NCBI GenBank assembly: GCA_041746575.1
Contig: JBGTGT010000072.1
Coordinates: 1 to 20,435 of the forward strand
Reading direction: 5' to 3'
DNA length: 20,435 bases
Source of the DNA: Microcystaceae cyanobacterium
GTDB lineage: Bacteria; Cyanobacteriota; Cyanobacteriia; Cyanobacteriales; Microcystaceae
A program made the translations under genes and the position numbers. The notes beneath the pieces are model-generated. The model was given only the letters and a program-made list of their open reading frames with translations, searched no databases and was not told the origin of the DNA. Positions 1,447-20,435 of this stretch are shown piece after piece; position 1 is the stretch's first letter, and each line of letters starts with the position of its first letter.

Positions 1447-1469
1447 TTAATTTCTACTGACGCTTAATA

Positions 1470-2606: not shown

Positions 2607-2709
2607 AGAAGCTCAATATAGCAAAATAGCCCAAAAAGTTAGCAATTTTCTGCACTTCACGTCTTTTCTTGTAGTAAAATAAATAAGCCATTTTATTTTT
2701 TATTAAATT

Positions 2710-2919: not shown

Positions 2920-2975
2920 AATGTTATCTTAAATGAAAACAGATTATTTAATTCAAATTCAATCATAATAACGTA

Positions 2976-3152
2976 ATGTCTTTTATTCGCCAAGTTATTG
3001 CCCCTTTATTCGCTGTTTTGCTCTTTTTAATCGCTTTAGTAGTTGTCAGTGCCAGAATTTTCTTACCTTCTGACTTAGCCCAACCTGCACCTATTGACAC
3101 AGAACAGGTAAGTTATGTAACTTTTAATCAAAATAGGTTAGATGTTGCCTGA
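2976..3152 (+). CDS. Small single-TM membrane protein, 58 aa (not in the ORF track): MSFIRQVIAPLFAVLLFLIALVVVSARIFLPSDLAQPAPIDTEQVSYVTFNQNRLDVA
   Basis: Translated by hand from ATG 2976 to TGA 3150-3152. One ~20-aa hydrophobic helix then RIFLPSDLAQPAP. Fills the gap between neighbours and overlaps the GNAT start by 11 nt. Confidence 0.75.
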   Translation: MSFIRQVIAPLFAVLLFLIALVVVSARIFLPSDLAQPAPIDTEQVSYVTFNQNRLDVA

Positions 3153-3615
3153 TTTTTATTGTTTACGCATGGGTTCAACCAAAGATAAGGCGTTACTCTT
3201 GAAATTAATGACCCTAGCCTATCAAGAACTGTTTCCACAACAGCTTGATTTTGCGCATTTAACAAGTACTGTTGAACAATATTTATCCGCTAAAACCCCT
3301 TTATGGTGGGTCAAGCTCAAATCTCAACCGCAGTCTTCTAATATAATTGGGGGGTTATGGATGGGTAATGCCGTTGATCAGGTGACAGGAAAGCGATATT
3401 CTCATATATTCCTCATCTATGTAAAACCGGAACACCGTCGTCAAGGAATTGCTACTGCCTTGCTAGAAAAGGCGCAAAATTGGTCAAAAAATCGGGGAGA
3501 TCATCAAATTGGATTACAAGTATTTGGACATAACCAACCTGCCTTAACGCTTTATCAAGGGCTAGGATTTCAACCGCAATCATTTTTGATGATGAAATCC
3601 TTTGATTCAGTTTAA
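3142..3615 (+). CDS. GNAT family N-acetyltransferase
   Basis: Acetyl-CoA binding motif A IYVKPEHRRQGIATALL and motif B NQPALTLYQGLGF. Confidence 0.92.
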   Translation: MLPDFYCLRMGSTKDKALLLKLMTLAYQELFPQQLDFAHLTSTVEQYLSAKTPLWWVKLKSQPQSSNIIGGLWMGNAVDQVTGKRYSHIFLIYVKPEHRRQGIATALLEKAQNWSKNRGDHQIGLQVFGHNQPALTLYQGLGFQPQSFLMMKSFDSV

Positions 3616-3714
3616 TTCTAAATAAAGGGATGATGGGGATGAGCAACTTACAATATCCGATTTTATAATGCTGTAGCTATTGATTAATATTCAGGGATTG
3701 ATGATAACTGACTG

Positions 3715-5355
3715 CTAGCGATTAGATTGATTAACGGCTTCTCCTAAACGAGTTAATCCTTGAGAACAATCCAAGCGATCTAAGTGTATCTCAATAAAGG
3801 ACACACAGTGGGTATTCGCCTTTGCGATGCTTAAAGCATCTTCTAATTCTCCTTCTGTAGAAACTTCACAACTCCAACTTTCACCAAAGATGTGGGGTAA
3901 TTCATGATATTTCCATGGTTGTAAATCATTATAAATATTATCTTGAATAACTCGTTCAATGGTATAACCATCGTTATTAATTAAGAAAATAATGGGGTTA
4001 AGCTGATGACGAATAATCGTCGACAATTCTTGCGCTGTCATTTGAAATGCGCCATCTCCAACAAATACAAGAATACGATGGCGAGGAGAGGCTAAACTTG
4101 CCCCTAAACAAGCAGGAATTGAATATCCAATAGAGAGATAAAACGCTTGTCCAATAAAATCCGTCCCTTTATACATAATAAGGTCAATAGTGGCAACGAT
4201 CGCGTCTCCTGTATCAGCGATAACGACGTGATTATCATCTAAGAAGTTATTAATGCGTTGATAAAATCGTTGATTAGTCAGCTTTTTATTTTTTTCAAGA
4301 TTAAACGTTTGATTCATTTCTTCATAAGCTGATTTGATCTCGAATACCCTTTTTTCTTTTTGATGAAACTGTTTAATTAATCCGTCCAAAAAGTCACCAA
4401 TATAAACGGGTTGATAAAAATGATGTTTAATTTTTATTTTCTCAGAATTTGCATTAATCAAGCGATTATCTTCTAATTTTGCAGTATTTCCCCCCAGATT
4501 CATGTCAGACATAATCGCACCTAGGCAGAGAAGACAATCCGCCGTTTCAATCCGTTGACGCACCTTCTCCCGACTAATGCCCCCAACGTAGTTACCAATA
4601 AACTGGGGATGGGTTTCCCGTAAACAAGATTTGCCCAAAAGGGTAGTAGCGAAGGGATATCCCGTCACTTCCAGCAACTTCTCTAATTTATCCTGAATTT
4701 CAAAACGATGGAATTCAACGCCTGCTAATATCGCTGGAAATTGGGCTTTTTCAAGTAAATAAACGGCTTCTTCGACGGCCTCTTGTAGAGCATTTTGGTC
4801 AGTTTGTTTAGGATAGCGAATGATGGCGTTATTAGGTATGCCACAGGGCTGATTGACTAAATTTGAGGGAATCTCAATATATACGGGTCTTTTGTAGTGT
4901 AAACAAGCCGCAAGGACATGATCAATTTGAGAAGCCGCCTGACTGGCATCCGTTAAAATAACAGAAGCCACAGTGGCTTTTTCCATAATAGAATGCTGTA
5001 GATTGTAATCTCCCGTTGTATGGTGCAATAGTAGATTATTTTGGCGAACAGAGCTAGTGGGTGCGCCACTGATCACTACAATCGGCACTCTTTCGGCATA
5101 AGCGCCTACCACCGCATTAACTAAACTAAATCCACCCACACCGTAGGTAATACAGACAGCCCCCATCCCTTTGAGACGACCATAGGCATCGGCGGCATAA
5201 CCGGCATTGAGTTCATTGCAAGTACAAACCAGTTCAACTGGGCTGTCCACAATAACATCCATTAACCCTAACACATAATCCCCCGGCACACCGAAGATAT
5301 GCTCGACGCCTAGGAAAGATAGACGGTTACAGAGATATTCACCAACAGTTTGCAT
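3715..5355 (-). CDS. TPP-dependent alpha-keto acid decarboxylase (pyruvate/indolepyruvate decarboxylase family)
   Basis: FGVPGDY, CNELNAGYAADAYGR, LLHHT and the TPP-binding motif GDGAFQMTAQE...NNDGYTIER. Confidence 0.93.
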   Translation of the reverse strand: MQTVGEYLCNRLSFLGVEHIFGVPGDYVLGLMDVIVDSPVELVCTCNELNAGYAADAYGRLKGMGAVCITYGVGGFSLVNAVVGAYAERVPIVVISGAPTSSVRQNNLLLHHTTGDYNLQHSIMEKATVASVILTDASQAASQIDHVLAACLHYKRPVYIEIPSNLVNQPCGIPNNAIIRYPKQTDQNALQEAVEEAVYLLEKAQFPAILAGVEFHRFEIQDKLEKLLEVTGYPFATTLLGKSCLRETHPQFIGNYVGGISREKVRQRIETADCLLCLGAIMSDMNLGGNTAKLEDNRLINANSEKIKIKHHFYQPVYIGDFLDGLIKQFHQKEKRVFEIKSAYEEMNQTFNLEKNKKLTNQRFYQRINNFLDDNHVVIADTGDAIVATIDLIMYKGTDFIGQAFYLSIGYSIPACLGASLASPRHRILVFVGDGAFQMTAQELSTIIRHQLNPIIFLINNDGYTIERVIQDNIYNDLQPWKYHELPHIFGESWSCEVSTEGELEDALSIAKANTHCVSFIEIHLDRLDCSQGLTRLGEAVNQSNR

Positions 5356-5452
5356 AGGAAGGGGTTGACTAATTAGAATCTTCTATAATTTAGCTTAATA
5401 ATTTTTAAAATGCGAATCAACACTTAAAAAGATCGGTAACAATCAATACCAT

Positions 5453-6265
5453 TTAATCATAACTGGCATCTGTAATTTTTAATTTGGTTCCACAAACTTT
5501 ACAAAAATTGGCATCTTGATCATGTCTACATAATTGACAATGGGGACAGGTTTTGTCATTGGCTTGGGTGAATTTTAATAATTGTTGAGTCAATGTTCCA
5601 ATTTGCCATGGAATTAAAACAATTCCTGATAAAATCATTAAAAGGGTGATAAAATGCCCCTGTTTTGATAAGGGAATCACATCGCCAAATCCCACTGTTG
5701 TCATAGTTACAATAGTAAAATAAAAAGCATCAAAAAAGTCACCAAAGACATGAGGATTGGCTTGATGTTCTACTTGATAAATTAAACCCGAATAGATAAA
5801 AATAACTGAAAATAAAGTTAAAAAAACTTCGACAAAAATCAAGCTGTCTTTTCGCTTTATTTTAAAAATGGAGCTTTCCAGTTGAATAAAGCGCAAAATT
5901 CTTAAAACCCTAAACCATCTTAATAATCGTAGAAATTGTAAATTTACAATTCCTAAAAATAAAGGAATAATAGCAATTAAGTCAACGAGAGAAAAAAAAC
6001 TGAATATAAACTTTAATCTATTCTCTGCACACCATAACCTAATTAGATATTCTAAAGTAAATAATCCTAAAATACCAAAATCAAGAAAATGCAGTATATT
6101 TTTTAAGTTTTGAGGTAGGGGATAAGTTTCTGTAATAAAAATTCCAAGAGATAGAAAAATTAAACTTAAAATAATCAGGTTAACGATTAAACTAAGCGGA
6201 TTTTTTAGGTCATTTAGATAAAAATTAATTTTCTGACGAAGCGGTAACGAATAATCGGTTAGCAT
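5453..6265 (-). CDS. 6-TM voltage-gated-type potassium channel (ion transporter) with C-terminal zinc-ribbon-like Cys motif
   Basis: S4-like LRLLRWFRVLRILR; filter TMTTVGFGD; tail CPHC...FCKVCG. Confidence 0.9.
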   Translation of the reverse strand: MLTDYSLPLRQKINFYLNDLKNPLSLIVNLIILSLIFLSLGIFITETYPLPQNLKNILHFLDFGILGLFTLEYLIRLWCAENRLKFIFSFFSLVDLIAIIPLFLGIVNLQFLRLLRWFRVLRILRFIQLESSIFKIKRKDSLIFVEVFLTLFSVIFIYSGLIYQVEHQANPHVFGDFFDAFYFTIVTMTTVGFGDVIPLSKQGHFITLLMILSGIVLIPWQIGTLTQQLLKFTQANDKTCPHCQLCRHDQDANFCKVCGTKLKITDASYD

Positions 6266-6360
6266 AAACGGGTTTGATAAAATTTAATTATTCAGTTTCT
6301 GATTAATGACAAATTAAAAGTTAGTCAATATTTGTCGAAAGTTTTTTAAAATTTTAGACA

Positions 6361-6954
6361 TTAAATAGGTTCAGATAATGCTTCTGTAACTGCTGCAAGA
6401 ACTTTATTGTCAGATACCATCCAAGCATGAACTAAGACAGGGAAAACCTTTTCTTGTCCAATTTTCATGCGAGAACTTGTAGCTGGCAAAATCATTAAAT
6501 CATAGGGAGTCCACATAACTGTTACTTTCACTTGACTCAATAAGGCTTGATAATCTTGATTCAAATCTTTTAGCAATTTGCTATCAGGTCTCATTTGTTG
6601 AATACCCGTTAAGGGTAAACTATAAGCCGTTAAAGTCCCCTGATTAGGGGCAGACATACTGATATAACGTTGAACCTTATGAATGCCGCCAAGTCGTTGT
6701 AAATAATAACGGGTGATAATCCCTCCCATACTAAACCCTAACAGATCAATCGGTTGTTCAAGAAAAAAGGTTTTATCAACATAACTTTTAATCTGTTGAG
6801 CTAATTCTTTTAAACAGGCAGTTCCCCCATTGGGAGCTAAACTAATGCGATGTACTGGCCAATCGTGCTGTTCTAAATAGTTAGCCATTGCATCAAATTT
6901 GCGGAACGTATCATAAATACCATGAATTAAAAGAACAGGATTTTTTTGGGTCAT
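6361..6954 (-). CDS. Small alpha/beta-hydrolase lipase/esterase
   Basis: PVLLIHG oxyanion motif; nucleophile elbow GFSMGG; Asp in PYDLMI; His in VLVHAWM. Confidence 0.9.
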   Translation of the reverse strand: MTQKNPVLLIHGIYDTFRKFDAMANYLEQHDWPVHRISLAPNGGTACLKELAQQIKSYVDKTFFLEQPIDLLGFSMGGIITRYYLQRLGGIHKVQRYISMSAPNQGTLTAYSLPLTGIQQMRPDSKLLKDLNQDYQALLSQVKVTVMWTPYDLMILPATSSRMKIGQEKVFPVLVHAWMVSDNKVLAAVTEALSEPI

Positions 6955-7241
6955 CGTTGTATTTTGAATAACATCCTTTTTTTTATTATAGCGAGTCTAT
7001 TTGAGTCCAGAACAGACCAATTCAGTAGAGAAAATAGATAGCTTTGATCATTCTATTTAAACTCAAAAACGCAACAGAATAAATGATTCAACTTGGTTAA
7101 CCCTGCCAGAATTGTTAAGAAACGTAGCTAAATTTAAAGCTTCATTGCAGTTTCGACCTTGAAGCCCCTTGTCGCTCTAACGGGGTGATAGAGTGATATG
7201 CGTCCCTATTTTGACGTGTCGTTGTTTCTTATTCATTGTTT

Positions 7242-7418
7242 ATGTATAGAGATTCTAGTGATAAAGATTTACTCGGTGCAGCCATTACGGCCGGCTTGGG
7301 TGCAGGGGTTGTTACCTCCTTTGCCGTTGCACAAGGTCAACATCCTGCGATTGGTTTAGGAATTACGCTTTTAGCAGCCCTTTGTGGCGTCATTTTCCGT
7401 AAATTTGATGTGATTTAA
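7242..7418 (+). CDS. Small two-helix Gly/Ala-rich membrane protein of unknown function, 58 aa
   Basis: ATG 7242 preferred over TTG 7236; two hydrophobic helices (GAAITAGLGAGVVTSFAVA; AIGLGITLLAALCGVIF); sole ORF between lipase and cysK. Confidence 0.7.
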   Translation: MYRDSSDKDLLGAAITAGLGAGVVTSFAVAQGQHPAIGLGITLLAALCGVIFRKFDVI

Positions 7419-7635
7419 TCGCAATTATGTAATTGAATAGCGTGAATAGTTGAAAGGTTGATCATCAGGACATCTGACAAGACCGAAAAAATACCTTGAA
7501 CTTTCAGAATTGAGATAGCAAGGGATCAACCAATCCACTGTTTGCGATCGCTACTTTTTCACGACGCTAGTAATCTAAAGACATTGAGAGAGAAGGGAAG
7601 ATTCAGACCTTTCATCAACCCCATCCCCTTAATTA

Positions 7636-8601
7636 TTACGAATTAATTAAAGCAACTTGAGGGGTTTCTAGCTCCTTAAATAAAGGCGTGCTGAGATAGC
7701 GTTCTCCAAAGCTCGGTTGAATCATCACGATCACCTTTCCCGCGTTTTCAGGGCGTTTTGCCACTTTAATGGCGGCGCACAAAGCGGCACCCGAGGAAAT
7801 GCCTGATAGTAATCCCTCTTCTCTGGCCAAACGACGACCATAAAACATGGCTTCATCATCGGTCACCCTGACCACTTCGTCGATTAAGTCCGTTTTTAGG
7901 ACCTCTGGTACGAAACCTGCGCCAATACCTTGAATTTTATGGGGACCGGGCGTTCCTCCCGATAAAACGGGACTGGTTTCCGGTTCAACAGCAATTACTT
8001 GAAAGTCAGGTTTGCGAGCTTTAATCACTTCGGCGATGCCAGTGATGGTTCCCCCTGTACCCACGCCGGAAATTAAGATATCGACCTTTCCATCCGTATC
8101 TGACCAAATTTCCTCAGCCGTGGTCAGACGGTGAATTTCAGGGTTAGCAGGGTTACGAAATTGTTGCAACATATAAGCATTGGGTAACTGCGCCACGAGT
8201 TCTTCAGCCCGTTGAATTGCCCCTTTAATCCCTAAACTACCGGGGGTTAACTCCAACTGAGCCCCATAGGCACGCAACATCGCCCGACGTTCCAAACTCA
8301 TGGTTTCTGGCATGGTGAGAATTAATTGATATCCTTTGGCAGCCGCCGCCATAGCCAAGGCAATCCCCGTATTCCCGGACGTTGGTTCCACGAGAAGCGT
8401 GTGTCCAGGGGCAATAAGTCCTTCTTTTTCGGCCGCATTAATCATATTAACCCCGATACGGTCTTTAACGGAGGAAGCTGGATTCATTCCTTCCAATTTC
8501 ACCACAATTTGGCCGACACATCCTTCTGATTGCGGAATACGATTTAAAGCAACTAAGGGGGTATGACCAATGAGTTCCGTAATATTTTTGGCAATTTTCA
8601 T
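7636..8601 (-). CDS. cysK: Cysteine synthase A (O-acetylserine sulfhydrylase)
   Basis: PLP-lysine motif [47 protein letters not shown]. Confidence 0.97.
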
Positions 8602-8806
8602 AATAAAACGATGTAAATAAGCGTATCTATCTTTCTAACACGATTGCTCAAAAAGGGTTAAATTTTTAGGTTTCTTTTTAGGATATTAGGATAGTCCCCC
8701 TATCGTCTAAAGTAGAAAACGAGAGGAAGACTGATAGAAAGAAAGAAGAAGCAGGGCATTATGATTTTAGGAAAGCTGACCTTTAGCTGTTGAAAGGAGT
8801 GAGTCG

Positions 8807-9466
8807 ATGTTATATAAAATTCGCTTCCGGCCAACCTTTGCTAACCTTTTTGTAACGCTCAATCCCAATGAGTCCATTCTTGCGGAGGTGGGTTCGTTAG
8901 TAAGCATGGAGAGCGGCATTATCGTGAAGACCAAACTAGCAGGGGGACTCATTGCGAGCATTATTGGCAGAATATTGGGACAAAAGCTCTTCTTTGTTCA
9001 AATTTACACGAATAAGAGTAATGAAGCAAAAAGCCTGATTTTGAGTCCAACTCTACTGGGCGATATTGAACGAATTGATTTAAGTCGCGGTGGAATTTGT
9101 GTCCGTCCAGAGGCTTATTTGGCTCATACGGCCAAAGTGCGGCTGAAAGTCCGTTGGACTGGCTTGAGACGTTGGTTGAGGGGAGAAGACTTATTCAAAC
9201 TTCAATTCAAAGGAGAAGGCCGCGTTTTTATCGGATCTTATGGCGGAATTACCAAACGAACGATTTACCAAGATTTTCTGGTTGATTTAGGTCATCTTCT
9301 GGCTTATGAACCCTCCATTCGTCTGAAGAAGCAAGCTGTTGTCAAGGGATTTAACCGTTCTAACTCTTCCGAACCCTTCGTCGGTCGCCTCAAGGGAAAA
9401 GGCATCGTTTACTTACAGTCTCGGAGTTTTGCTCAATTGGTTCAATATTTACGCAATAAAGATTAA
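8807..9466 (+). CDS. TIGR00266 / AIM24 family protein (paralogue 1)
   Basis: ESILAEVGSLVSM, GEGRVFIGSYGGI, VDLGHLLAYE and GKGIVYLQSR motifs; RBS AAGGAG upstream. Confidence 0.85.
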   Translation: MLYKIRFRPTFANLFVTLNPNESILAEVGSLVSMESGIIVKTKLAGGLIASIIGRILGQKLFFVQIYTNKSNEAKSLILSPTLLGDIERIDLSRGGICVRPEAYLAHTAKVRLKVRWTGLRRWLRGEDLFKLQFKGEGRVFIGSYGGITKRTIYQDFLVDLGHLLAYEPSIRLKKQAVVKGFNRSNSSEPFVGRLKGKGIVYLQSRSFAQLVQYLRNKD

Positions 9467-9467
9467 C

Positions 9468-10139
9468 ATGGAAATTTCAGTGGTGCAACAACCCGATAGT
9501 GCGATCGCCCGTATTTTACTGAACAATAATGAAGAAATCACCACACGAGCAGGGGCGATGATTTCTATGAGTAATAATATCGAAGTCGGTGCCACCCATC
9601 GAAAAGGCCGAGCCACAAAAGGGGTTGAGAGTCCCTTGCGCATGATTGGCGGGCAATCCCTCTTTCTTCATTCATTTAAGGCAAAAACGAATCACTGTGA
9701 AGTGATTTTGTCTCCTTCTTTTCCGGGAGATCTGCACGTTTATGCTCTTAGTACCTATAAACTGATCTTACAAACCAGTGCTTTTTTAGCTTGTACTTCA
9801 GAAGTAGATTTATTTTTGGGCTTTCGGGGAATTAAGGCGACCGATGCCCAAGAACCCTTATTTTGGCTCAGTCTGGCAGGCAAAGGACAGGTAATTCTGG
9901 GCAGTTTTGGAGCGATTTATGAAATTCTGGTAGATGGAGAGTATATCGTCACGCCGAGTCACGTCGTTGCTTTTGAAAATAGTCTTGACTATACCGAAAT
10001 TAAGCTAAGTCGGGGATGGTTGGGAAAATTTTCAGGTGAAGATGGCATTGTGTGGTTTTTTAAAGGACAGGGAATCATTTACTGTCAAAGCCACTACCCT
10101 GACCGCTTTGGTCGCTTATTAAGCACTCAATGGGGTTAA
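9468..10139 (+). CDS. TIGR00266 / AIM24 family protein (paralogue 2), 223 aa
   Basis: Start reassigned to ATG 9468, 1 nt after the stop of paralogue 1. Motifs RAGAMISMS, GKGQVILGSFGAI, HVVAFE, GQGIIYCQSH. Confidence 0.85.
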   Translation: MEISVVQQPDSAIARILLNNNEEITTRAGAMISMSNNIEVGATHRKGRATKGVESPLRMIGGQSLFLHSFKAKTNHCEVILSPSFPGDLHVYALSTYKLILQTSAFLACTSEVDLFLGFRGIKATDAQEPLFWLSLAGKGQVILGSFGAIYEILVDGEYIVTPSHVVAFENSLDYTEIKLSRGWLGKFSGEDGIVWFFKGQGIIYCQSHYPDRFGRLLSTQWG

Positions 10140-10190
10140 AAGACAAGTAATTTGTCAAATTTGCCCGAAGTAGCTCAAGAAAAGGGGGTC

Positions 10191-10268
10191 AGTAGGGAGA
10201 TAGGGAGAAAATTTTTAAGCGAGATCTTTCTACATTGGTTTTCTGTTCCCTATTCCCGAACACCTACT
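10191..10268. repeat. Imperfect inverted repeat built from TAGGGA/TCCCTA units between convergent genes
   Basis: AGTAGGGAGATAGGGAGAAAA (10191-10211) versus TTTTCTGTTCCCTATTCCCGAACACCTACT (10239-10268); resembles short cyanobacterial intergenic repeats. Confidence 0.45.
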
Positions 10269-10293
10269 ATAAAGTTCTCCTCTCGAACTCAGG

Positions 10294-10479
10294 TTAATTA
10301 ATGGGCGCGCTGGAAGCATAAAAAGCCACTGCAATAAGCCCACTAACTAAAATCAGTGCGATTGCGCCTAAAATGAGATAATTTCGTCGTTCGTTTGGGT
10401 TAGGAGGAGTCGCTCGGTAAACTTTAGGCTCGGCGGCAAAGTTGTTTAGGCGTCCACCGTCTTCAGTTGTGTAAGGCAT
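10294..10479 (-). CDS. psb34: Photosystem II assembly factor Psb34 (Ssl1498 family)
   Basis: MPYTTEDGGRLNNFAAEPKVY N-terminus (HliP-like) and a single C-terminal TM helix. Confidence 0.9.
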   Translation of the reverse strand: MPYTTEDGGRLNNFAAEPKVYRATPPNPNERRNYLILGAIALILVSGLIAVAFYASSAPIN

Positions 10480-10521
10480 AATTTTGATTCCTTAATTATG
10501 GGTTATGAATTTTAATATATC

Positions 10522-10539
10522 ATAACATTTCTTAACACG
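10522..10539. promoter_or_regulatory. Putative HLR1-like (RpaB) direct repeat upstream of psb34
   Basis: ATAACATT-TC-TTAACACG, a degenerate match to (G/T)TTACA(T/A)(T/A)-N2-(G/T)TTACA(T/A)(T/A), about 45-60 bp upstream of the psb34 start. Confidence 0.5.
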
Positions 10540-10872
10540 CAGACAACTGGCGTCAAAAATTATTCTACCCTCTGCGGTTCATCTCCAAAAAACGTGATCC
10601 CCTCGGCAACGTCAAGAAATTCTAACATAAGTAACCAGTTCTCTGTTTCCCCTAGACAAATGTCAGGTTTCCTTGACATTGTGATCCCCGAAATCCTGAT
10701 TCTTTCGTTAATCAATGGAGAATTAATGCGCTAACCCCCTTGACCATTTGCCTTGTGGTTTTGTTACATAAGGTTAAGCAAGTGATCCCCAACTAAAACA
10801 TCTATGGAATTAGTCGAGGTAACTCAAACCCAGTAACAAAGTGTCACCCCAATTTGGAGAAGAGTGAATCTC

Positions 10873-12174
10873 ATGATGGCCAATGAACGCCCACCCCTAG
10901 AAGAGATGACCTTGCGACAACTGAGAAAAGTTGCCAGCGACTACAACATCTCTCGTTACAGTCGAATGCGAAAATCGCAGTTATTGGATGCAATCCGGCA
11001 AGCCGTTCAGGCAGAAGGGACAAACCCCGAACCCGCCTCCAGAATTAACTCCGAACCTGTATTGTTTTCCCAGCCCAGTCAAGAAACCCCTTTTATTAAC
11101 CCTATTCAAACCAATCGTCAGGAAGAACAACAAGTGGAAGCATCTAAATTTGAACTTGGACAAGAAGACCAACTCGGCGATACCTTAGCCTCCGTAGATG
11201 AAGGGCTAGGAGAACTCCATGGTGGTTACGGTGAAAGCCGTGTTGTACTACTGCCACGAGATCCTCAATGGGCTTACACCTATTGGGATATCCCCAACGA
11301 AAGAAAGGAAGAAATGCGTCGTCAAGGGGGACAACAACTGGCTTTGCGCATCTACGATGTGACAGAGGTCGATTTAGATTATCAAAGTCCCCACAGCGTA
11401 CAGGAATATATTTGTGATGAATTAGCCCGCGAGTGGTATCTTCCTGTTCCTGTCAGCGATCGCGATTATATTATTGATATTGGCTATCGTTGCGCGGACG
11501 GCCGTTGGTTAATGCTAGCTCGTTCAACTTCGGTTCGTATTCCCCCCGTTTATCCTTCTGATTGGGTAGAAGATATTTTCATTACCGTGGGATGGGATGA
11601 AGAATTAATCGGTCAAACCAAATACGCCTTCGTTCCCCCCAGCAAACGCACGACTGCTGTTCCCAGTAGTCCTATTTACGAACAAATTTTCGGCATGAGC
11701 GAAAGTGTGGAAGCGCAACGAATTGCAGGTTCTCTGTTTGGTTCGATGCAACACGTTGCTGGATCGGTGGTCAGTTCTTATGTTCACCAAGAAAGTTCTT
11801 TCGCCGCCGTTAGTTCCTATGTCTTCCCTTCTGGGGCAGGAATGTGGGCTTCTGGTTCTGGAGTGGGTTTCTCCGCTTCTGCACCCCCAGTACGTCCTCG
11901 TAAGTTCTGGTTAGTGGCAGACGCCGAATTAATCGTTTATGGTGCAACCGAACCCGATGCTACTGTCACAGTGGGCGGTCGTCCTATTAAGTTAAATCCT
12001 GATGGTACATTCCGCTTCCAGATGTCTTTCCAAGATGGTTTAATTGACTACCCCATCGCAGCAGTGGCGGCAGATGGAGAACAAACCCGCTCTATTCACA
12101 TGAAATTTAACCGTGAAACGCCTTCTCGTCACACTAATACGAAGGAAGAAGCCGTACTGGAGTGGTTGACCTAA
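10873..12174 (+). CDS. DUF4912 domain protein with N-terminal Rho_N-like helical domain
   Basis: N-terminal LEEMTLRQLRKVASDYNISRYSRMRKSQLLDAI; DUF4912 core LLPRDPQWAYTYWD; C-terminal FWLVADAELIVYGATEP. ATG 10873/10876 preferred over GTG 10864. Confidence 0.88.
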   Translation: MMANERPPLEEMTLRQLRKVASDYNISRYSRMRKSQLLDAIRQAVQAEGTNPEPASRINSEPVLFSQPSQETPFINPIQTNRQEEQQVEASKFELGQEDQLGDTLASVDEGLGELHGGYGESRVVLLPRDPQWAYTYWDIPNERKEEMRRQGGQQLALRIYDVTEVDLDYQSPHSVQEYICDELAREWYLPVPVSDRDYIIDIGYRCADGRWLMLARSTSVRIPPVYPSDWVEDIFITVGWDEELIGQTKYAFVPPSKRTTAVPSSPIYEQIFGMSESVEAQRIAGSLFGSMQHVAGSVVSSYVHQESSFAAVSSYVFPSGAGMWASGSGVGFSASAPPVRPRKFWLVADAELIVYGATEPDATVTVGGRPIKLNPDGTFRFQMSFQDGLIDYPIAAVAADGEQTRSIHMKFNRETPSRHTNTKEEAVLEWLT

Positions 12175-12218
12175 TTCTGTAATGTCTGTGACCACTGAGT
12201 CGTTTTTGCCAACTCATT

Positions 12219-12251
12219 GCCCCTGATAACGGAGTTTATTGGGGGCTTTTT
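12219..12251 (+). terminator. Intrinsic terminator after the DUF4912 gene
   Basis: GCCCCTGATAA / loop CGGAGT / TTATTGGGGGC then TTTTT. Confidence 0.8.
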
Positions 12252-12490
12252 AGTCCATCCCAATCCGACTTTACCGTGCTTTGCACTTGATGAGGTACAT
12301 GATTGATGGTGGGGATACAAGGTTTGCGCCTCAAGGTGTATGATATTAACGCGCAATTTGTTATCAGAGTGACACAAAAATCTACAGCAGTTTACAATTA
12401 AATGAGGTACAGAATTTAAGGTTTGAAGCAGAAGTCTGTATCTTTTTGATTTCCCTTTTTCTGCACTGATCAATTACATTTAGTCTATTT

Positions 12491-13945
12491 TTAACTAATT
12501 AATAGATTCCCCATCATGCCTAAATCTTCATGGTCTAAAATATGGCAATGATAAACGGTTTTACCGGTAAAATCTTGGAAAGGAATGCGAATTCTGACGG
12601 TTTCTCCCCGACGGACTAAAACGGTATCACGCCAAGCGAGAAAAGGTTCGAGTTGACCATTGCGACTAATGACTTGAAAATCATTAAGATGTACATGAAA
12701 AGGATGATCCATTACCCCTGTATTTATTAATTCCCATTCTTCTATAGTATTTAGCTGAACTGATGTATCAATTCGTTGATGATCGTAAGGTTTTCTATTC
12801 ATTAAAAAAGCCATTCCCATCCCTGGCGACATCCCATGATTAAGGGTAAAACGACGCACGTTTTGAGGATTGGGTAAGGGGGAAATTGAGGTTAATTGAG
12901 TCGGTAACGCCATCGGTTCAACCGAGGAATTATAGTTAAGGGTTGCTAAGACAATGGGTGTATTGGAAGACCGATTATTTCCCATCATGCCTCCTCCCAT
13001 CATGCCCATTCCGCCTCGACTATAAGGAAGACTGAGCAAACGATAGTTTTTAGGGGTTTGATCGCCTTTGACTAAAATTTCTGCTCGTTGACCGGGTGTG
13101 AGTAATAATTCGGTCATTTTTAGGGGTTTAGCGATCGCTCCTCCATCGGTAGCAATGAGATAAAAGGGATGATTTTCCAATGAAAGATTATAAAAACGAG
13201 AAGTAGAGGCGTTGAGAATTCTTAAGCGTAATAATCCATTTTGAGCAAGCGAAAAAGCAGGATTAATTTCCCCATTAACCGTAATCACATTGCCTTCTCT
13301 TCCTGCCATAATGTTCATGTGATTAGATGACATTAATTTTCCTTGATCATTTAACGCAAAATCTTGTAAAACTAAGAATTCTTCTGGTGCTGATTTTATT
13401 TCTAAAATCTCATCTAACTTCCCTCGAATCACAAATAATCCTGCCAATCCTGCCGCTAATTGATCTGCCACATAACCATGTACGTGAGGGTGATACCAAA
13501 ACGTTCCGGCTCTTTGGTTTGGATGAATTTGAAACTCATAGGTAAACGTTTCTTTCGGATTGATTTTCAGGAAAACATTATCTGCTTTACCCGTCGGTGG
13601 AATATGTAAGCCGTGGTAGTGTAAATTCGTCGGTTGGTCAAAACGATTCGTGAAGTGAATGCGAACTTTATCCCCTGCTTTTGCTTCTAAGCGGGGGGCG
13701 GGAATTTGACCATTATAGGTTAATAAATAAGCGGGATTATCACCTAAATTAACTTTAGTGTAGTTCGCTTCTAAATTCACTTCTAATAAACCATTTTGGC
13801 TGCGATAAATCTTGGTTAAATTAGGATTGGGTTTTGCCCAAGAAATTTCGGATTTATTTTGCCTTAATAGCCAATTTGTTCCTAATGTCATACCTCCACC
13901 GACGACGGCAAACGTAAGAAATTGACGACGGTTAAACTTTACCAT
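12491..13945 (-). CDS. Tat-exported multicopper oxidase (CueO/laccase-like)
   Basis: Twin-arginine signal NRRQFL; Cu motifs HYHG, WYHPH, HPFHVH, HCHILDHEDLGMM; Met-rich loop GGMGMMGGGMMG. Confidence 0.95.
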   Translation of the reverse strand: MVKFNRRQFLTFAVVGGGMTLGTNWLLRQNKSEISWAKPNPNLTKIYRSQNGLLEVNLEANYTKVNLGDNPAYLLTYNGQIPAPRLEAKAGDKVRIHFTNRFDQPTNLHYHGLHIPPTGKADNVFLKINPKETFTYEFQIHPNQRAGTFWYHPHVHGYVADQLAAGLAGLFVIRGKLDEILEIKSAPEEFLVLQDFALNDQGKLMSSNHMNIMAGREGNVITVNGEINPAFSLAQNGLLRLRILNASTSRFYNLSLENHPFYLIATDGGAIAKPLKMTELLLTPGQRAEILVKGDQTPKNYRLLSLPYSRGGMGMMGGGMMGNNRSSNTPIVLATLNYNSSVEPMALPTQLTSISPLPNPQNVRRFTLNHGMSPGMGMAFLMNRKPYDHQRIDTSVQLNTIEEWELINTGVMDHPFHVHLNDFQVISRNGQLEPFLAWRDTVLVRRGETVRIRIPFQDFTGKTVYHCHILDHEDLGMMGNLLIS

Positions 13946-13979
13946 TATTTAATTATTACTAATCTAAATCAATGAATCT

Positions 13980-14534
13980 TTAGTACTTTTCGTAGTGCTT
14001 AAATACTGCCATCTTTCCATTAGTATTAAATGCCAAAACATCAAAGGGTTGTTTACGATCTCCTGATTCCATTCCGGGAGTTCCAATCGGCATTGCAGGG
14101 ACAGAGAGTCCAGCCATTTGAGGTTTTTGTTTGAGAAAACGTTTCACATCATCCGCCGGAACATGACCTTCTATAACATAGCCATCAATAGTAGCCGTAT
14201 GACAAGAAGCTAAGTTTGAAGGGATATTATTTTGTTGTTTAATCGTTTCTATCTTATCGGTTTTAATATCCGTAATTTGAAAACCCTGCTTTTTCATGTG
14301 TTCAATCCATCCCCCACAGCAATTACAGGAAGGACTACGATAAACAGTCATCTTTTTATTACCAGAGTAGGATTCTCTAGATTGATACCAAACACTCGCT
14401 ACAACAGTTGTATGAGAGGAATTAGACAGGACATTAGCGTCATTTTTAGCATTAAGATAAATTCCTCCTGCTAAAGTGATGAAAGCCGCACTAGCGATCG
14501 CAATTAACAATCGAGTCTTTAACATAATCTTCAC
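13980..14534 (-). CDS. DUF411 (CopG-like) exported metal-binding protein
   Basis: N-terminal signal/TM; YRSPSCNCCGGW (CxCC), SCHTA, EGHVPA, PGME motifs. Start GTG 14534 or ATG 14525. Confidence 0.9.
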   Translation of the reverse strand: MKIMLKTRLLIAIASAAFITLAGGIYLNAKNDANVLSNSSHTTVVASVWYQSRESYSGNKKMTVYRSPSCNCCGGWIEHMKKQGFQITDIKTDKIETIKQQNNIPSNLASCHTATIDGYVIEGHVPADDVKRFLKQKPQMAGLSVPAMPIGTPGMESGDRKQPFDVLAFNTNGKMAVFKHYEKY

Positions 14535-14561
14535 GGTTACAAGTTTAGTTTTTCTATTTCC

Positions 14562-14594
14562 ATTGTAGTTTATAAAAATGAAATTGACATGAAA
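14562..14594 (-). promoter_or_regulatory. Internal CopR-type promoter: TTTCAT-GTCAA-TTTCAT, 10 bp, -10 TACAAT
   Basis: Minus-strand repeats at 14594-14589 and 14583-14578; -10 at 14567-14562. Matches the TTTCAT-N5-TTTCAT CopR motif of Synechocystis PCC 6803. Confidence 0.75.
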
Positions 14595-14608
14595 TAAAAA
14601 AGTCGTTA

Positions 14609-15133
14609 TTAAGAATTAGACTCTTTAACTTCCACAATGCCTTTAAACATATTCATCTCACAATGAAAAGTATATTGTCCTGTTTGGGTTGGCGTAAACT
14701 CCGTTGATTTAACTTTATTTAGGGGTAAGTCGAGGGCTTTGTGAAAATCAGGTAATATAACTTTTTCTAAGCAACTACTCGGATCTTTACGAAGGAAGTT
14801 AAGACGAACAGGTTGATTTAAGTTTACCTGAATTCTATCTGGCGTATACCCACCATCTACGACAATTTCCAATTCTTGGATTCCTTGATTGACAGTTGCT
14901 TTTTGTGATTTTGTTTTACTCAATAAAAACCACCAAAGTTCAGCCCCAATTAATCCGAGTCCACCTAATGTGACCAAAATTTTCAAGGAGATGGGTTGTT
15001 CAATTCGAGAGAACGATTGACGGGTTTGCATTTGCAGGGGTTCGGTTTCCATTTTGGCTTGAGAAACAGCCGCAGTTCCCACTGACAAACTTAGGGTCAA
15101 TATTCCAGTCAAAATAATTTTAGAGTGTTTCAT
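14609..15133 (-). CDS. Membrane-anchored cupredoxin-domain protein (CupA-like)
   Basis: Signal-like N-terminus, TM helix ILVTLGGLGLIGAELWWFLL, then a cupredoxin fold VDGGYTPDRI...SSCLE...YTFHCEMNM. Confidence 0.88.
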   Translation of the reverse strand: MKHSKIILTGILTLSLSVGTAAVSQAKMETEPLQMQTRQSFSRIEQPISLKILVTLGGLGLIGAELWWFLLSKTKSQKATVNQGIQELEIVVDGGYTPDRIQVNLNQPVRLNFLRKDPSSCLEKVILPDFHKALDLPLNKVKSTEFTPTQTGQYTFHCEMNMFKGIVEVKESNS

Positions 15134-15146
15134 TTTGGGCGTCCTC

Positions 15147-17429
15147 TTAACTAAAACGTTCAGCTTTAAAATTTCGTAATCTCAAAGCATTACTCACGAC
15201 AGAAACAGAACTAAATGCCATCGCCGCACCTGCAATAATAGGATTCAATAACCAACCAAAGAAAGGATACAAAATACCGGCCGCGATGGGAATTCCTAAG
15301 ACGTTATAAATATAAGCAAAAAACAGATTTTGACGGATGTTATTCATCGTCGCATGACTCAGATGAATAGCAGTTACAATACTTCGTAAATCGCCAGAAA
15401 TAAGAGTTAAATCACTAGCCGCTATAGCAACGTCTGTTCCCGTACCAATGGCAATTCCGACATCCGCTTGTGCCAAAGCAGGTGCATCATTAATGCCATC
15501 TCCTACCATTGCAACAATTTTGTTTTTCTGTTTTCTGCTTTTTCTTTCCTGTTGAATTTCTTTAATAAAATCAGCTTTTTGATCGGGATGTACCTCCGCA
15601 AAAACTCTCTGAATTCCGACTTCTGCCGCAATTGCTTCTGCGGTTTTTTGATTATCTCCTGTGAGCATAATCACTTCTAAACCCATTTTTTTTAGGGCTT
15701 TAACCGCGTCAATAGAAGAGGGTTTAATGGCATCTGCAATTCCTATTAATCCTTCGATTTGTCCATCAATAGCCATCCAAGCTGTGGTTTTCGCTTCGGC
15801 TTCCCATTGTTGACGATTGGACTGTAAATTATTGGTATTAATGTCTAAAGCATCCATCCATCTTTGTGTACCGATTTGGATAACTTTTCCTGATACCTTT
15901 CCTCGGACACCCATTCCGGCAACGGCTTCAAAATTAGTGGCTTTGGGTAAAGGCATTTTCACGCCTTGAGATTGGGCATAATTCACGACTGCTTCTGCTA
16001 AAGGATGTTCTGAGTTTTTTTCAATCGCAGCAGCCATTCTTAGGATTTCCATTTCGTTATCATTGGCAATTCCTTTAACAGTAATATAGTTAGTCACGCT
16101 GGGTTTTCCTTGCGTAATTGTTCCCGTTTTATCACAGACAATCGTATCAATTTTATGAGCCAATTCTAGACTGTCTGCCCCTTTAATGAGGATGCCATTT
16201 TCAGCCCCTTTTCCGGTGCCTACCATAATAGAAGTAGGCGTGGCTAACCCTAAAGCACAAGGACAAGCAATAATTAAAACACCAACGGTGGTAATCATAG
16301 CAAGGGTGACATTTCCCATGACATTAAACCAAATTATAAAGGTTAAAATGGCGATCGCAATAACGGTGGGAACAAACCATCCTGTCACTTGGTCAGCTAA
16401 TTTTTGAATCGGAGCTTTACTGCCTTGGGCATCTTGAACTAATTTAACAATTTGTGCTAATACGGTATCTTTCCCCACTTTTGTGGCTTTAAATTTGAAG
16501 CTTCCTGTCTTATTAATGGTTGCGCCAATCACTTCGTCTCCTGCTTGTTTTTTAACCGGAATGGGTTCACCGGTTACCATCGACTCATCAATCGAAGATT
16601 CCCCCTCTATTACTTCTCCATCCACCGGAATTTTTTCTCCCGGACGTACTAGAATAAGGTTCCCAACAGTGACTTGTTCAATCGGAATATCTTTCTCTTG
16701 TCCATTCTGAATAACTCTTGCCGTTTTTGCCTGTAATCCTATTAATTGACGGATGGCTTCTGAGGTTTTTCCCTTCGCACGATTTTCAAATAATCTTCCT
16801 AAAAGAATTAAAGTAATAACAATAGATGCCGTTTCATAATAAACGTCCGGCGCAATTCCTTGAGAGCGTAAAAAATCAGGAAAAAGAGTAGCAAATATAG
16901 AGTATAAATAGGCAACAAGTGTACCTAATCCGACTAAAGTATTCATATCTGCCGCATGGCGTTTAAAAGCTTTCCAACCGCCCACTAAAAAGGTTTTACC
17001 ACACCAAAATTGAACAGGCGTTACTAAAATTAATTGTAGCCAAGGATTATGTAACCAAGCGGGGATAAAAGGTAAATGTAAACCCGTCATCATGGGAAGT
17101 GTACCAAGGACTAATAGTACGCTAATAATACCCCCAAAAATAACTTTACGGGTTAATTCTTTTTGCTCCGCTTCTCTTACTTTTTTTTCGGCATCGGCAT
17201 CTTCTTGATTATCAGTCACGGGAAACGCTTGATAACCTGATTGGTTAACAGCGTCTTGAATATTCGATAAATTGGTAATATTTTTATCGTAAGTGACGGT
17301 TGCTTGAGAAAGGGCAAAGTTGACGTTTCCTTGACTCACCCCTTCGACATTTTGAATAGCTTTTTCGATGGTGGATGCGCACCCAGCACAACTCATTCCT
17401 TGTAATCTTAAATGTTCGGTTTGCATCAC
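15147..17429 (-). CDS. copA: Cu(I)-translocating P1B-1 type ATPase (CopA/PacS-like)
   Basis: N-terminal HMA GMSCAGC; TGEP; intramembrane [23 protein letters not shown]...MAFSS Cu(I) signature; RBS AGGAGA. Confidence 0.95.
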
Positions 17430-17468
17430 ATTAAATCTCCTTTTTCTAGGATTGGTTTCAGGACGTTT

Positions 17469-17915
17469 TTAAGAAATATTCTGCTGAGAAGTTAAAGACA
17501 CTGTGGCAATTAAAGGACAAATCGCTTCGGGATGAGATTGAGAAAGGGGATGAGTTGCCCAAGCTTTGCGGTATTGTTCTAATTCAGCCTTAAAAAGCAT
17601 CATTTGCTGAATTTTGAGTTCCAATTCTTCTATTTTCTTATCTAGTAAACGTTTGACTAAATCACAAGGGATTTCTCCCCTATCGCGCACATCGAGGATT
17701 TGCTTAATTTCTTCAAGGCTAAAACCAATGGCTTGCGCTTTTTTAATAAATTCTACCTGTTGACTGGCATCGAGGCTGTAGTAACGATAGCCATTTCCCC
17801 CCCTCTCTACAGGATTTAAAACCCCTAAATCGCTATAATAACGTAAATTACCGACGGAAAGCCCTGTTTTTTGGGCAAGTTCGCCAATTTTAAGGTAAGG
17901 TGTCTGATTCATCAT
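17469..17915 (-). CDS. MerR-family heavy-metal-responsive transcriptional regulator
   Basis: HTH IGELAQKTGLSVGNLRYY...GYRYY; GFSLEEIK; dimerisation helix; Cys84 (IPC) and Cys133 (ICPLI). Confidence 0.93.
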   Translation of the reverse strand: MMNQTPYLKIGELAQKTGLSVGNLRYYSDLGVLNPVERGGNGYRYYSLDASQQVEFIKKAQAIGFSLEEIKQILDVRDRGEIPCDLVKRLLDKKIEELELKIQQMMLFKAELEQYRKAWATHPLSQSHPEAICPLIATVSLTSQQNIS

Positions 17916-17945
17916 TGTTTGTCTGCTATCTGTCTTTCTGTTTCT

Positions 17946-17977
17946 AGTCTAAACTCTCTAGTAAGCTGTAGAGTCAA
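17946..17977 (-). promoter_or_regulatory. MerR-type long-spacer promoter with operator dyad
   Basis: -35 TTGACT (17977-17972), 20-bp spacer, -10 TAGACT (17951-17946); 22-bp dyad ACTCTACAG-CTTA-CTAGAGAGT (17974-17953). Confidence 0.85.
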
Positions 17978-18039
17978 GATATAAGGAACTAAAATCTGCT
18001 TAGATGTTTTCCTGATAGATTATTAAATTCCTTTTTCTC

Positions 18040-18072
18040 AATTTAAGAGATAATTATGAAATTAAGATGAAA
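18040..18072 (-). promoter_or_regulatory. Upstream CopR-type promoter: TTTCAT-CTTAA-TTTCAT, 10 bp, -10 TAAATT
   Basis: Minus-strand repeats at 18072-18067 and 18061-18056; -10 at 18045-18040. Same geometry as the box at 14562-14594. Confidence 0.7.
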
Positions 18073-18123
18073 TGTAAAGCCTTTCTTTTTTCGTAATTTT
18101 AGGTCAGTCAAAATGTATCGGTG

Positions 18124-18156
18124 AAAAGAGGCGACTGTCAAATAAATCGCCCCTTT
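18124..18156 (-). terminator. Intrinsic terminator after the S8 protease gene
   Basis: Minus strand AAAGGGGCGAT-TTATTTGACA-GTCGCCTC-TTTT, 40 bp after the stop; would insulate the copper promoters. Confidence 0.65.
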
Positions 18157-18195
18157 GTGTGTTAAGGATTATTAATCTAAGAATGCTCTTCTGCG

Positions 18196-20193
18196 TCATG
18201 AGAAAAATAGCTCAATTCCAAATTGGACTAATTGACCTTCATCTCGAAACGCTTTATCTTGGACTTCTAGTTGCCAAGTTCCTTTAACCATTTTGCCTTG
18301 AAAATCAGCCAAAGCGGGTGTAGTCATCGCGTCAAATTTCTGTTTCAAATTTCGTGTTGCACCACCACTACGGTTATGAAGAATAATTTTATCTAGCTCA
18401 AGTTCGGGCGGCGAGATTAGTGAAATAATTAAATCCCCAATATATGAATGCAAAATTTCAACAATGACAGAGAGATATTTGATAGGAGTCGTTTCCCCTA
18501 TCTCTAACGTTACACTGACCGTTTGCAAATCGGGCAGCATTTGATTAAAGTTACGAATGACAACCACGTTATTTTGCGGTTGAGGTTGAGCTAGATTAAC
18601 GGCGGTTTGAGCGTTAAGACGACCATAGCCATAAAATTTACTCCAGCCATTGGCATCATACTGGCCACCAGAGGGGTCAATTTTGTCACAAGAACGTTTC
18701 AGCAACTCTTTGACTTCCTGCCAGCGAAGATTAGGATTAACAGCCAATACTAAAGCGGCTACTCCGGCGGCACCCGGACACGAGCTAGAAGTTCCCCCAA
18801 AGCTATTCGTATAGTTACCCGTCACATCTCCATTGGCAAGAGACCCTTGATTATATCCCAGACGGCCGGTGCGGTCAGTTGTCCAAATTCCCGTCGTTAA
18901 TGGCTCAGGATGAGAGAAGGGGGGATAGCCAAAATCACTGCTGGGAAAAGCACACCAAATAGCATTGCCAAAATCGCTATAAACACTGCGCTTGCTTCGG
19001 TCATTGCAAGCGGCCACCGCTATCACCCGCTCATAACTTGCATAACCATCGTTATCTACACTTTCATTGCCATTTCCTGCGGCAAATAAAACGACACAAC
19101 CCTTTCCTTCTCGACCTTGAGTGGTGGCATAATCAATAGCCAGTTTGGTACTGGCGGGCAGCATTACGTTACGAGTGTGCAATGAATCATTCGGGTTAAA
19201 CCATTCGCCATCCTGTGGACCCCAACTACAAGAAATGACATCAGCCCCGTTATCAGCTGCCCAACGGAATGCGTCGGCTTCCTGTAGAGAACCTAAGCCA
19301 CTGGCGAGTCGAATCGGCATTAATTTGGCTTTGGGAGCAACACCTGAAGCTTCTAAATGGCCATTAGCACAAGCAACTCCGGCACAAGATGTACCATGAT
19401 TGTCGGGAAAACCCTGATCTTTGGGGCGGGGGTCGTTACTATTAAAAGTAGCATCTCTCGGTGCGACCAATTTTCCGGAACCGCCAAACTCCACGTGATC
19501 AATGTCAATCCCGTCATCGATAATGGCAATGGTAATGCCTTCTGCTTGTGTAATGAGGTGAGCCGCTTCTACGTTGGCACTCGCCGAAAGGGTGATGCCA
19601 TTAACCAAAGTAGTTTTTAGATGCCATTGTTGAGGAGAAATCCCTCGCAAGCTACGTTTTCTCACAATTTCTGGGTGACAATATTCTACTTCTTCTCGCT
19701 CCAGCAAAGATAAAGCGATTTCAAATACCTGCTCTCCTATGCCTTCGGGCGCAGCCACAAAGAAAGCGTTGGGTGCATAACTAATCTCTTCTTTAAGGGT
19801 CAGACCGGCTTCTCGGATGATCGTCTTGCACTCATCAGGCTCTGTGGTATCGGTAAATTTAATAAACAAGTTTTCTGTGTAAATAACTGGTTCTCCCGAT
19901 TGTTCATCGACTAATACTCCCCCGGCGAAACGGACATCAGGTAATTGACGTAAGGCGACTTTGCGCTCATTGAGCGATTTCTGTTCATGACCCGTTGGCA
20001 CTTTATAGACTTCGACCCCGACTTCGGGAAATGATAAAACTAATTGACCTGCCGATAATTCTGCAGAAATGGGTGTTGGTACGGGAACAGCAGTGGCAGA
20101 ACGTCTTGAGCGGGTACGAACGACGATAAGGTCTTCACTTTTGCGAAATTGAACAGAAGGTTCATCTTTATGACCAAATTTGACTTCCGGCAT
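18196..20193 (-). CDS. S8 family subtilisin/kexin-like serine protease with C-terminal proprotein-convertase P-domain
   Basis: Catalytic Asp (IAIIDDG), His (NHGTSCAG), oxyanion Asn (FAAGNG), Ser (FGGTSSSCP); P-domain VEILHSYIGDL...GTWQLEVQD. Start reassigned to ATG 20193 (GGAG 9 nt upstream) rather than TTG 20208. Confidence 0.92.
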   Translation of the reverse strand: MPEVKFGHKDEPSVQFRKSEDLIVVRTRSRRSATAVPVPTPISAELSAGQLVLSFPEVGVEVYKVPTGHEQKSLNERKVALRQLPDVRFAGGVLVDEQSGEPVIYTENLFIKFTDTTEPDECKTIIREAGLTLKEEISYAPNAFFVAAPEGIGEQVFEIALSLLEREEVEYCHPEIVRKRSLRGISPQQWHLKTTLVNGITLSASANVEAAHLITQAEGITIAIIDDGIDIDHVEFGGSGKLVAPRDATFNSNDPRPKDQGFPDNHGTSCAGVACANGHLEASGVAPKAKLMPIRLASGLGSLQEADAFRWAADNGADVISCSWGPQDGEWFNPNDSLHTRNVMLPASTKLAIDYATTQGREGKGCVVLFAAGNGNESVDNDGYASYERVIAVAACNDRSKRSVYSDFGNAIWCAFPSSDFGYPPFSHPEPLTTGIWTTDRTGRLGYNQGSLANGDVTGNYTNSFGGTSSSCPGAAGVAALVLAVNPNLRWQEVKELLKRSCDKIDPSGGQYDANGWSKFYGYGRLNAQTAVNLAQPQPQNNVVVIRNFNQMLPDLQTVSVTLEIGETTPIKYLSVIVEILHSYIGDLIISLISPPELELDKIILHNRSGGATRNLKQKFDAMTTPALADFQGKMVKGTWQLEVQDKAFRDEGQLVQFGIELFFS

Positions 20194-20435
20194 GATGGGT
20201 GACTCCAATAATGAATTTACTTATAAAGTCATCATTACAAGATAAAGTTACTCTAGCTCGCAAAAAAGTCATGCCAATTCATAAAACTTAAGACGGTAGT
20301 GTAAAAGATGTAGTGAAACTGGATTTTATCCCTAAGGTACTGTTAGAAATCAAGCCCGAAAGGCAAAAATTTTAAAAAGGAGATAAATTATTATATAGTG
20401 AAAGAATGTTTTTTAGCTAAAAAAGAGAGGAAGAG

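Follow-up and report, generated by a model that had tools for sequence, protein, structure and literature searches.

A copper-detoxification cluster with CopR-type boxes and a MerR-type promoter in a Microcystaceae cyanobacterium

We analyzed a stretch of 20,435 nucleotides from a Microcystaceae cyanobacterium (contig JBGTGT010000072.1 of assembly GCA_041746575.1), called the window throughout, in which a cluster on the minus strand (12491..18072) carries, in this order, the genes for a MerR-family regulator (merR), the copper ATPase CopA, a CupA-like copper chaperone, a DUF411 protein and a multicopper oxidase. The cluster appears to be a copper-detoxification operon with two inputs, direct repeats of the CopR type and a MerR-type promoter; that the MerR input is probably the only live one in this organism is a reading for which we see the chances as evenly divided. 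The tandem of the two elements is a real, if unproven, cyanobacterial design and is likely half-disabled in this genome.

Cyanobacterial copper regulation has been characterized almost only through the two-component system CopRS of Synechocystis, which does not control the copper ATPases and, as far as the accessible text of two reports goes, controls copMRS and copBAC only (PMC4182526, PMC4284471). The cluster described here provides a candidate for a cytoplasmic sensor, together with its operator and the genes that it would target.

Promoter elements of the cluster

The direct repeat TTTCAT-N5-TTTCAT, which belongs to the CopR/RppA class, is present twice in the cluster. Box 1 (18056..18072, on the minus strand like all cluster features below) occupies the -35 position of a predicted promoter P1 and is followed after 10 base pairs (bp) by the -10-like hexamer TAAATT (18040..18045), with a predicted start near 18033. 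Box 2 (14578..14594) is followed at the same distance by TACAAT (14562..14567) and would form an internal promoter, P3, with a start near 14555. Both boxes and their hexamers had been proposed in a first-pass annotation of the window made from its sequence, and both were recovered exactly. None of 100 shuffles of the window contained an exact repeat. A search for further sites in the genome, which the annotation had suggested, returned 5 exact N5 sites in all where about 1.8 are expected per spacing, and other spacings returned 0-6; the bare motif is not enriched across the genome. Boxes 1 and 2 are the only two of the five with a -10-like hexamer 10 bp on. If the repeats were chance matches in AT-rich DNA, a genome-wide count within the range of other spacings would be expected, and a weak promoter match (TTTACA-17-AATTAT) does overlap box 1; against this, two exact sites with a correctly placed hexamer fall within one copper cluster and nowhere else in the genome, and we consider chance extremely improbable. 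A generic scan for promoters and terminators gave no excess over shuffles. A third exact box (C22:64348) stands in reversed orientation 110 bp before a gene of the four-helix copper-storage type (csp; G000:C22:64332-65668), and reversed boxes also lie 110-205 bp before four-helix copper-storage genes in Anabaena, in G016 and, twice, in Gloeocapsa. The csp gene is followed by a DUF305-like gene with visibly higher G+C.

The repeat, its 5-bp spacer and the 10 bp to the -10 element are identical to those of the CopRS regulon (copMRS, copBAC) of Synechocystis PCC 6803, in which the copM2 and copB promoters of plasmid pSYSX carry the same repeat, then 10 bp and a -10-like hexamer. The accessible text of PMC4182526 gives the Synechocystis CopR site as TTCAT-N4-5-TTCAT. 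Of 55 distinct boxes drawn from 17 copper-gene loci, 48 have NANNNT at offset 10, compared with 1-6 at offsets 8, 9, 11 and 12. Across 40 relatives, which as kin are not independent, the box with its -10 element was matched 83 times in the 25 that have a CopR-class gene and 11 times in the 15 that do not (reversed-pattern control, 11 and 4 respectively); since CopR-class genes were called from at most 70 candidates per genome, some relatives counted as negative may be misses. A box lies directly upstream of the oxidase orthologue of G019, inside a copRS locus, and G023 has a box before copM yet no CopR-class match. Because their geometry matches that of CopR targets and such boxes are associated with CopR-class genes, boxes 1 and 2 are best taken as putative RppA-class sites, with CopR as their likeliest, though not certain, reader. 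The RppA class presumably also takes in NrsR-like proteins. Unlike in Synechocystis, the boxes here precede genes for MerR, a P1B ATPase, CupA, a DUF411 protein and an oxidase, and the assembly contains no copRS.

The MerR-type promoter P2 (17946..17977) starts 78 bp behind box 1 and consists of TTGACT (17972-17977), a 20-bp spacer and TAGACT (17946-17951), with a predicted start near 17939. Its operator dyad (17953-17974) holds at 7 of 9 positions, in agreement with the first-pass claim of a MerR promoter with a 20-bp spacer upstream of merR. P2 thus has what marks a MerR-activated promoter, namely a TTGAC -35 element, a spacer of 19-20 bp, a dyad between -35 and -10, and retention with its regulator: it is conserved ahead of merR in both congeners, whose P2-merR-copA units carry no box. 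It is the only MerR-type operator with a -10 element in the genome. As with the promoters of copA and cueO under CueR in Escherichia coli, a P1B ATPase and a multicopper oxidase are placed behind a long-spacer promoter of the MerR type; the dyad ends and the 20-bp spacer resemble those of the ZntR operator. A MerR-type promoter of their own lies within 160 bp upstream in 12 of 22 close merR homologues and just upstream in 10 of 46 distant ones. This points to positive autoregulation in this merR clade.

With both inputs in place, periplasmic copper would be detected by CopS, and phosphorylated CopR would switch on P1 and P3 by binding the repeat, which stands in for their -35 element. P1 would drive the whole operon and P3 the DUF411 and oxidase genes only, which would let the periplasmic arm respond on its own. 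Cytoplasmic copper would act through metal-bound MerR, which would untwist the 20-bp spacer of P2 and raise expression of merR-copA-cupA, and with it the level of MerR. Because the promoters are separate and in tandem, the predicted logic is OR or additive, not AND. A recent loss of copRS would have orphaned P1 and P3 in this organism and left the DUF411 and oxidase genes dependent on read-through from P2. Binding, activation, the metal sensed and a true loss of copRS are all points that we infer from sequence. The further first-pass proposal that CopR raises MerR in a feed-forward loop finds its box ahead of merR here; as a general feature it does not stand, for a box lies within 400 bp upstream of only 1 of 68 merR-clade genes, the one of this genome. 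On paper, the feed-forward step is thus present here and, by way of the operon, in G016, and it is not the usual form.

The tandem and its MerR regulator in other cyanobacteria

To locate the tandem elsewhere we scanned 401 genomes of the order for a box followed by TTGACTCTMYAG. Tandems with a gap of 40-70 were found in 7 of the 401 genomes and tandems with a gap of 71-130 in 13, with 0 in the control for either range, and the two ranges joined give 18 carriers, our own genome included. One of the genomes counted, G311, has a false tandem (operator dyad 4/9, no -10 element), and the tandem of G027 is weak (dyad 6/9). A loose pattern scan of metagenomes, excluded from these counts, returned 117 stretches, of which 4 with a dyad of at least 6 were kept and 3 look real. 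The gene behind the tandem was matched directly to CopM in 13 of 22 loci, and the copM of G141 was also confirmed; copZ follows in one case, the DUF411-oxidase pair in G116, and merR in our own genome only. CopR-class regulators are intact in 15 of the 17 other carriers (G292 has a copy with stops and G141 has none), and the merR clade is present in all 17, so that the dual CopR-box/MerR wiring appears to be a recurring cyanobacterial design. Two points weigh against this: a single family accounts for 10 of the 17 other carriers, and the two motifs may stand in tandem only because both are crowded into the same metal islands. The first-pass claim of a cluster wired to two sensors, with CopRS acting in trans, fared differently in its two halves. 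The tandem recurs together with CopR-class regulators in other cyanobacteria, and the congeners' merR promoter lacks the box; for this organism, no copRS orthologue was found in the assembly, an outcome that the annotation had itself named beforehand as refuting its reading.

It is also possible, though we think it rather unlikely, that the tandem is an accident of shuffling, with box 1 left over from a deleted CopR-target gene upstream and without a selected role on merR. The congeners' boxless promoter would fit such an origin, as would G021, in which an insertion sequence and a small gene separate a box from the MerR promoter downstream. The element upstream of the DUF411-oxidase pair also varies: two plasmids have a MerR-type operator and no box, G116 has the tandem, G021 lacks both, and our cluster has a box and no MerR-type operator there. 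Because this element differs between genomes and plasmids, promoter modules are swappable between copper genes. Accidental shuffling is, however, harder to reconcile with the tandem before copM, which is kept with both elements intact across several genera, and even as a remnant, a promoter 78 bp upstream would continue transcription into merR. The shuffling account overlaps with our preferred reading, orphaned boxes beside a live MerR promoter, for box 1 only.

Both elements are also found at two further loci. G016, which lies outside the 401 genomes, has a box, a MerR promoter, copZ-copA-cupredoxin-merR and a second box. On plasmid pCC7120beta of Anabaena PCC 7120, a MerR-type promoter precedes the copM homologue all7633, and 102 bp upstream of this promoter there is a box; MerR-type promoters are also found at copA, merR and copZ, and the plasmid carries two RppA/RppB pairs. 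Locus names on this plasmid (all7633 and others) are those that we take to correspond by gene order. The all7633-alr7637 region shares with our cluster copA, cupredoxin and merR genes, a MerR of the same clade, MerR-type promoters and a box, and differs from it in that merR comes after copA. Over 27976-35215 of this plasmid (L179) five MerR-type promoters, a candidate regulon of the MerR WP_010993965, are interleaved with CopR boxes. In the accessible text of PMC4335983 all7633 is induced by copper; the accessible parts of the literature found describe the locus as copper-induced and assign it no regulators, and the name alr7637 does not occur in the papers found. Anabaena offers a model strain with both regulators and a copper-induced tandem promoter.

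The MerR-family regulator (17469..17915, 148 amino acids), assigned by profile searches and a clade alignment, has only two cysteines, Cys84 and Cys133. An alignment of 71 clade members shows both to be invariant and Trp119 to be retained in 68. On the structure of the mercury sensor Hg-MerR (4ua1), Cys84 corresponds to the helix-5 Cys and Cys133 to the last loop Cys; Trp119 falls on the position of the first loop Cys or beside it. According to the accessible text of PMC11672702, CueR uses two loop cysteines and has a Ser at helix 5, whereas the divalent-metal sensors ZntR and Hg-MerR use the helix-5 Cys and both loop cysteines. Unlike CueR, ZntR and Hg-MerR, the present clade retains only the helix-5 and last loop cysteines. 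The protein scores below all NCBIfam cut-offs. Cys84 at helix 5, Trp119 at or next to the first loop position and a score of 77.9 bits against a cut-off of 147.4 set it apart from CueR, and the missing first loop Cys and scores under the cut-offs set it apart from ZntR, CadR-PbrR and Hg-MerR; it fits neither ligand pattern. We take it to resemble the cd04787 subgroup. The positions of the two cysteines and the copper neighbourhood suggest a two-thiolate site across subunits that would suit Cu(I), in which case the use of a helix-5 Ser by monovalent sensors would not hold as a rule. On the other side, a helix-5 Cys is typical of divalent-metal sensors, so that copper as the inducer is indicated by the neighbourhood only. 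On balance we judge it neither more nor less probable than its opposite that this is an undescribed cytoplasmic sensor of cyanobacteria, a MerR subclass that would coordinate Cu(I) through the helix-5 Cys of one subunit and the last loop Cys of its partner, activate its own gene and share tandem promoters with CopRS, giving copper sensing in two compartments. Many merR orthologues (L101-L108, L113-L117) stand alone with no copA nearby, and their targets must lie elsewhere; several have a MerR-type promoter of their own. In G033 (L362:2144-6270) a decayed copy of the cluster has a merR fragment, a shortened copA, a cupredoxin gene and an oxidase gene behind a MerR promoter.

Dual control of this general kind, by a MerR-family regulator and a two-component system, is already known from cueP of Salmonella, and each type of input is known singly. 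In the accessible text of PMC13201067 (citing Pezza 2016), cueP is controlled by CueR and CpxRA, and loss of either input lowers cueP. The likeness is that a single copper gene answers both to a MerR-family sensor in the cytoplasm and to a two-component system of the envelope; as far as that text goes, Cpx senses envelope stress and not copper, whereas here separate tandem promoters and a copper-specific kinase are predicted. The three-gene order merR-copA-cupredoxin is likewise found in an Alteromonas cassette with a merR of the cd04787 type, whose merR and copA are co-induced by copper (PMC8478169); the accessible portion of that report does not discuss a two-component box, the operator or the metal ligands. 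The first-pass statement that the layout had not been described in cyanobacteria was upheld as far as our search reached: neither a CopR-box/MerR tandem nor a MerR with this ligand set was found in the cyanobacterial literature, most subscription papers lying outside the search. A 2025 review (PMC12292863) mentions neither MerR nor CueR in its accessible part.

CopRS and the reader of the boxes in this genome

The genome is a hot-spring metagenome bin of 134 contigs and 4.2 Mb with a marker completeness of 99.78%, and orthologues of copR, copS, copM and copBAC were not found in it. The best match to CopR reaches 46% identity and is not part of the CopR/NrsR clade, nothing matches the CopS sensor domain, no match to the RppB family exceeds the cut-off, and CopM, CopB and the resistance-nodulation-division pump have distant matches only. 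All 9 OmpR regulators of the genome fall outside the 37-row CopR/NrsR clade in a quick tree (SH-aLRT 99). The regulator at C116:69076-69759 scores 260 on the RppA model, above the cut-off of 250, and four true members score 377-385; since the cut-off does not discriminate, identity and the tree were used instead. Because the assembly is without copRS, the local two-cysteine MerR is likely the only working sensor here. That the P1 and P3 boxes were orphaned by a recent loss of copRS in this organism seems to us as open to belief as to doubt. There is a precedent in G141, which keeps the tandem and copM and has no CopR-class gene, and whose synteny with G040 breaks off immediately ahead of the copBAC-RS block. 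For this genome the caution is that perfect boxes can stand without their regulator.

Several findings weigh against a loss. All three boxes at copper genes, spread over two contigs, match the repeat perfectly, in keeping with a regulator that is still present, and 15 of 17 other carriers have an intact CopR-class gene, as noted above. Both congeners (4.4-4.6 Mb, 77-92% complete) carry an RppA-class regulator, copRS is plasmid-borne in the model strains Synechocystis and Anabaena, and bins often miss plasmids. The dual wiring could accordingly be live here, with copRS on a plasmid or contig outside the bin driving P1 and P3 and raising MerR in a feed-forward loop, a possibility that we rate as real but the less probable one. 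The marker completeness speaks against it, as does the fact that copS, copM and copBAC are missing from the assembly along with copR; the feed-forward part in particular is disfavoured by the single box directly ahead of merR among 68 genes. We also mapped three metagenome runs on the copRS-merR-copA locus of G021, where the organism's own contig matched merR, copA and cupA. Among the pieces listed, the only long copR-like one came from run X3 (371 bases, depth 11.4) and lies where runs X1 and X2 total 9.3 and 10.3, compared with 27.2 and 33.6 for this organism; because its depth in X1 and X2 can be no more than about 9-10, the piece likely comes from a neighbouring organism. None of the copR- or copS-like contigs listed fits the organism's depth profile, and the copS sensor region of the probe had near-zero cover. 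The test is a weak one: the mapping sees only genes about 80% alike to one probe and would miss another RppA subclade.

The boxes might alternatively be read now by the C116 regulator, presumably ManR, which would tie the copper operon to manganese status by activation or competition. This regulator is one of the outgroups closest to the CopR clade, shows few differences in its recognition helix and passes the RppA cut-off. Moreover, two reversed repeats with the half-site and spacing of the boxes overlap the region before an mntC-like ATP-binding cassette operon (C15:13759; repeats at G000:C15:13705-13739), and these are likely ManR sites, an assignment that we assume in part. The accessible text of PMC4182526 notes a CopR motif upstream of mntC in Synechocystis. 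In the same text, however, copM is silent in a copR mutant and mntC is not CopR-dependent, so that the paralogues do not replace each other in Synechocystis. The ManR label is itself our assumption, and we regard a ManR-like reader as improbable.

Genes of the cluster and flanking sequence

The gene order and families given in the first-pass annotation were confirmed by profile searches. CopA (15147..17429) scores above the TIGR01511 cut-off and has a metal-binding domain with CAGC, followed by CPC, DKTGT, SEHP, YN and MAFSS motifs; the CxxC domain, CPC, YN and MxxSS identify it as a Cu(I)-exporting P1B-1 ATPase. The next gene (14609..15133; PF13473), annotated at first pass as a cupredoxin, does encode a cupredoxin fold, and its identity could be refined to a CupA homologue: the protein matches structures of the Streptococcus pneumoniae copper chaperone CupA (2mry/4f2e, E 7.7e-21), and the alignment shows the cupredoxin-fold domain with the Cys and CxMxM ligands preceded by a hydrophobic segment. 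This N-terminal region likely anchors it in the membrane. The DUF411 protein (13980..14534; PF04214) has CNCC, SCH and GH motifs, likely starts at the ATG at 14525 and is likely an exported metal-binding protein. The last gene (12491..13945) encodes, by profiles and motifs, a CueO-like three-domain multicopper oxidase in which all four His/Cys/Met copper-ligand motifs are present together with the twin-arginine motif RRQFL, as in three-domain oxidases of the twin-arginine translocation (Tat) pathway.

One contig assembled from runs X1 and X2 spans 436-20324 of the window with zero letter differences; these runs are possibly the window's own source, so that the agreement is not independent. Four runs contain the stretch, all of them hot-spring metagenomes from a single study. 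In runs X1 and X2 the read depth of the cluster equals that of its flanks and is single-copy. With this depth and a G+C of 0.375-0.398 for the cluster compared with 0.403 for the genome, no island signature was found.

Beyond the cluster, positions 18196-20208 (G+C 0.46) encode a 670-amino-acid S8 subtilase that has a P-domain and lacks an evident signal peptide. After this gene a stem-loop with a 12-base loop and a short T run (18123-18155), overlapped by a TTGACA-18-TACATT match, is a possible terminator insulating the cluster. At the contig end, 20295-20435 belongs to a repeat, about 640-670 bases long, whose depth is 2-3 times that of the chromosome. Elsewhere in the genome (G000:C52:27187-28163) a ZnuA-family gene is broken into two frames.

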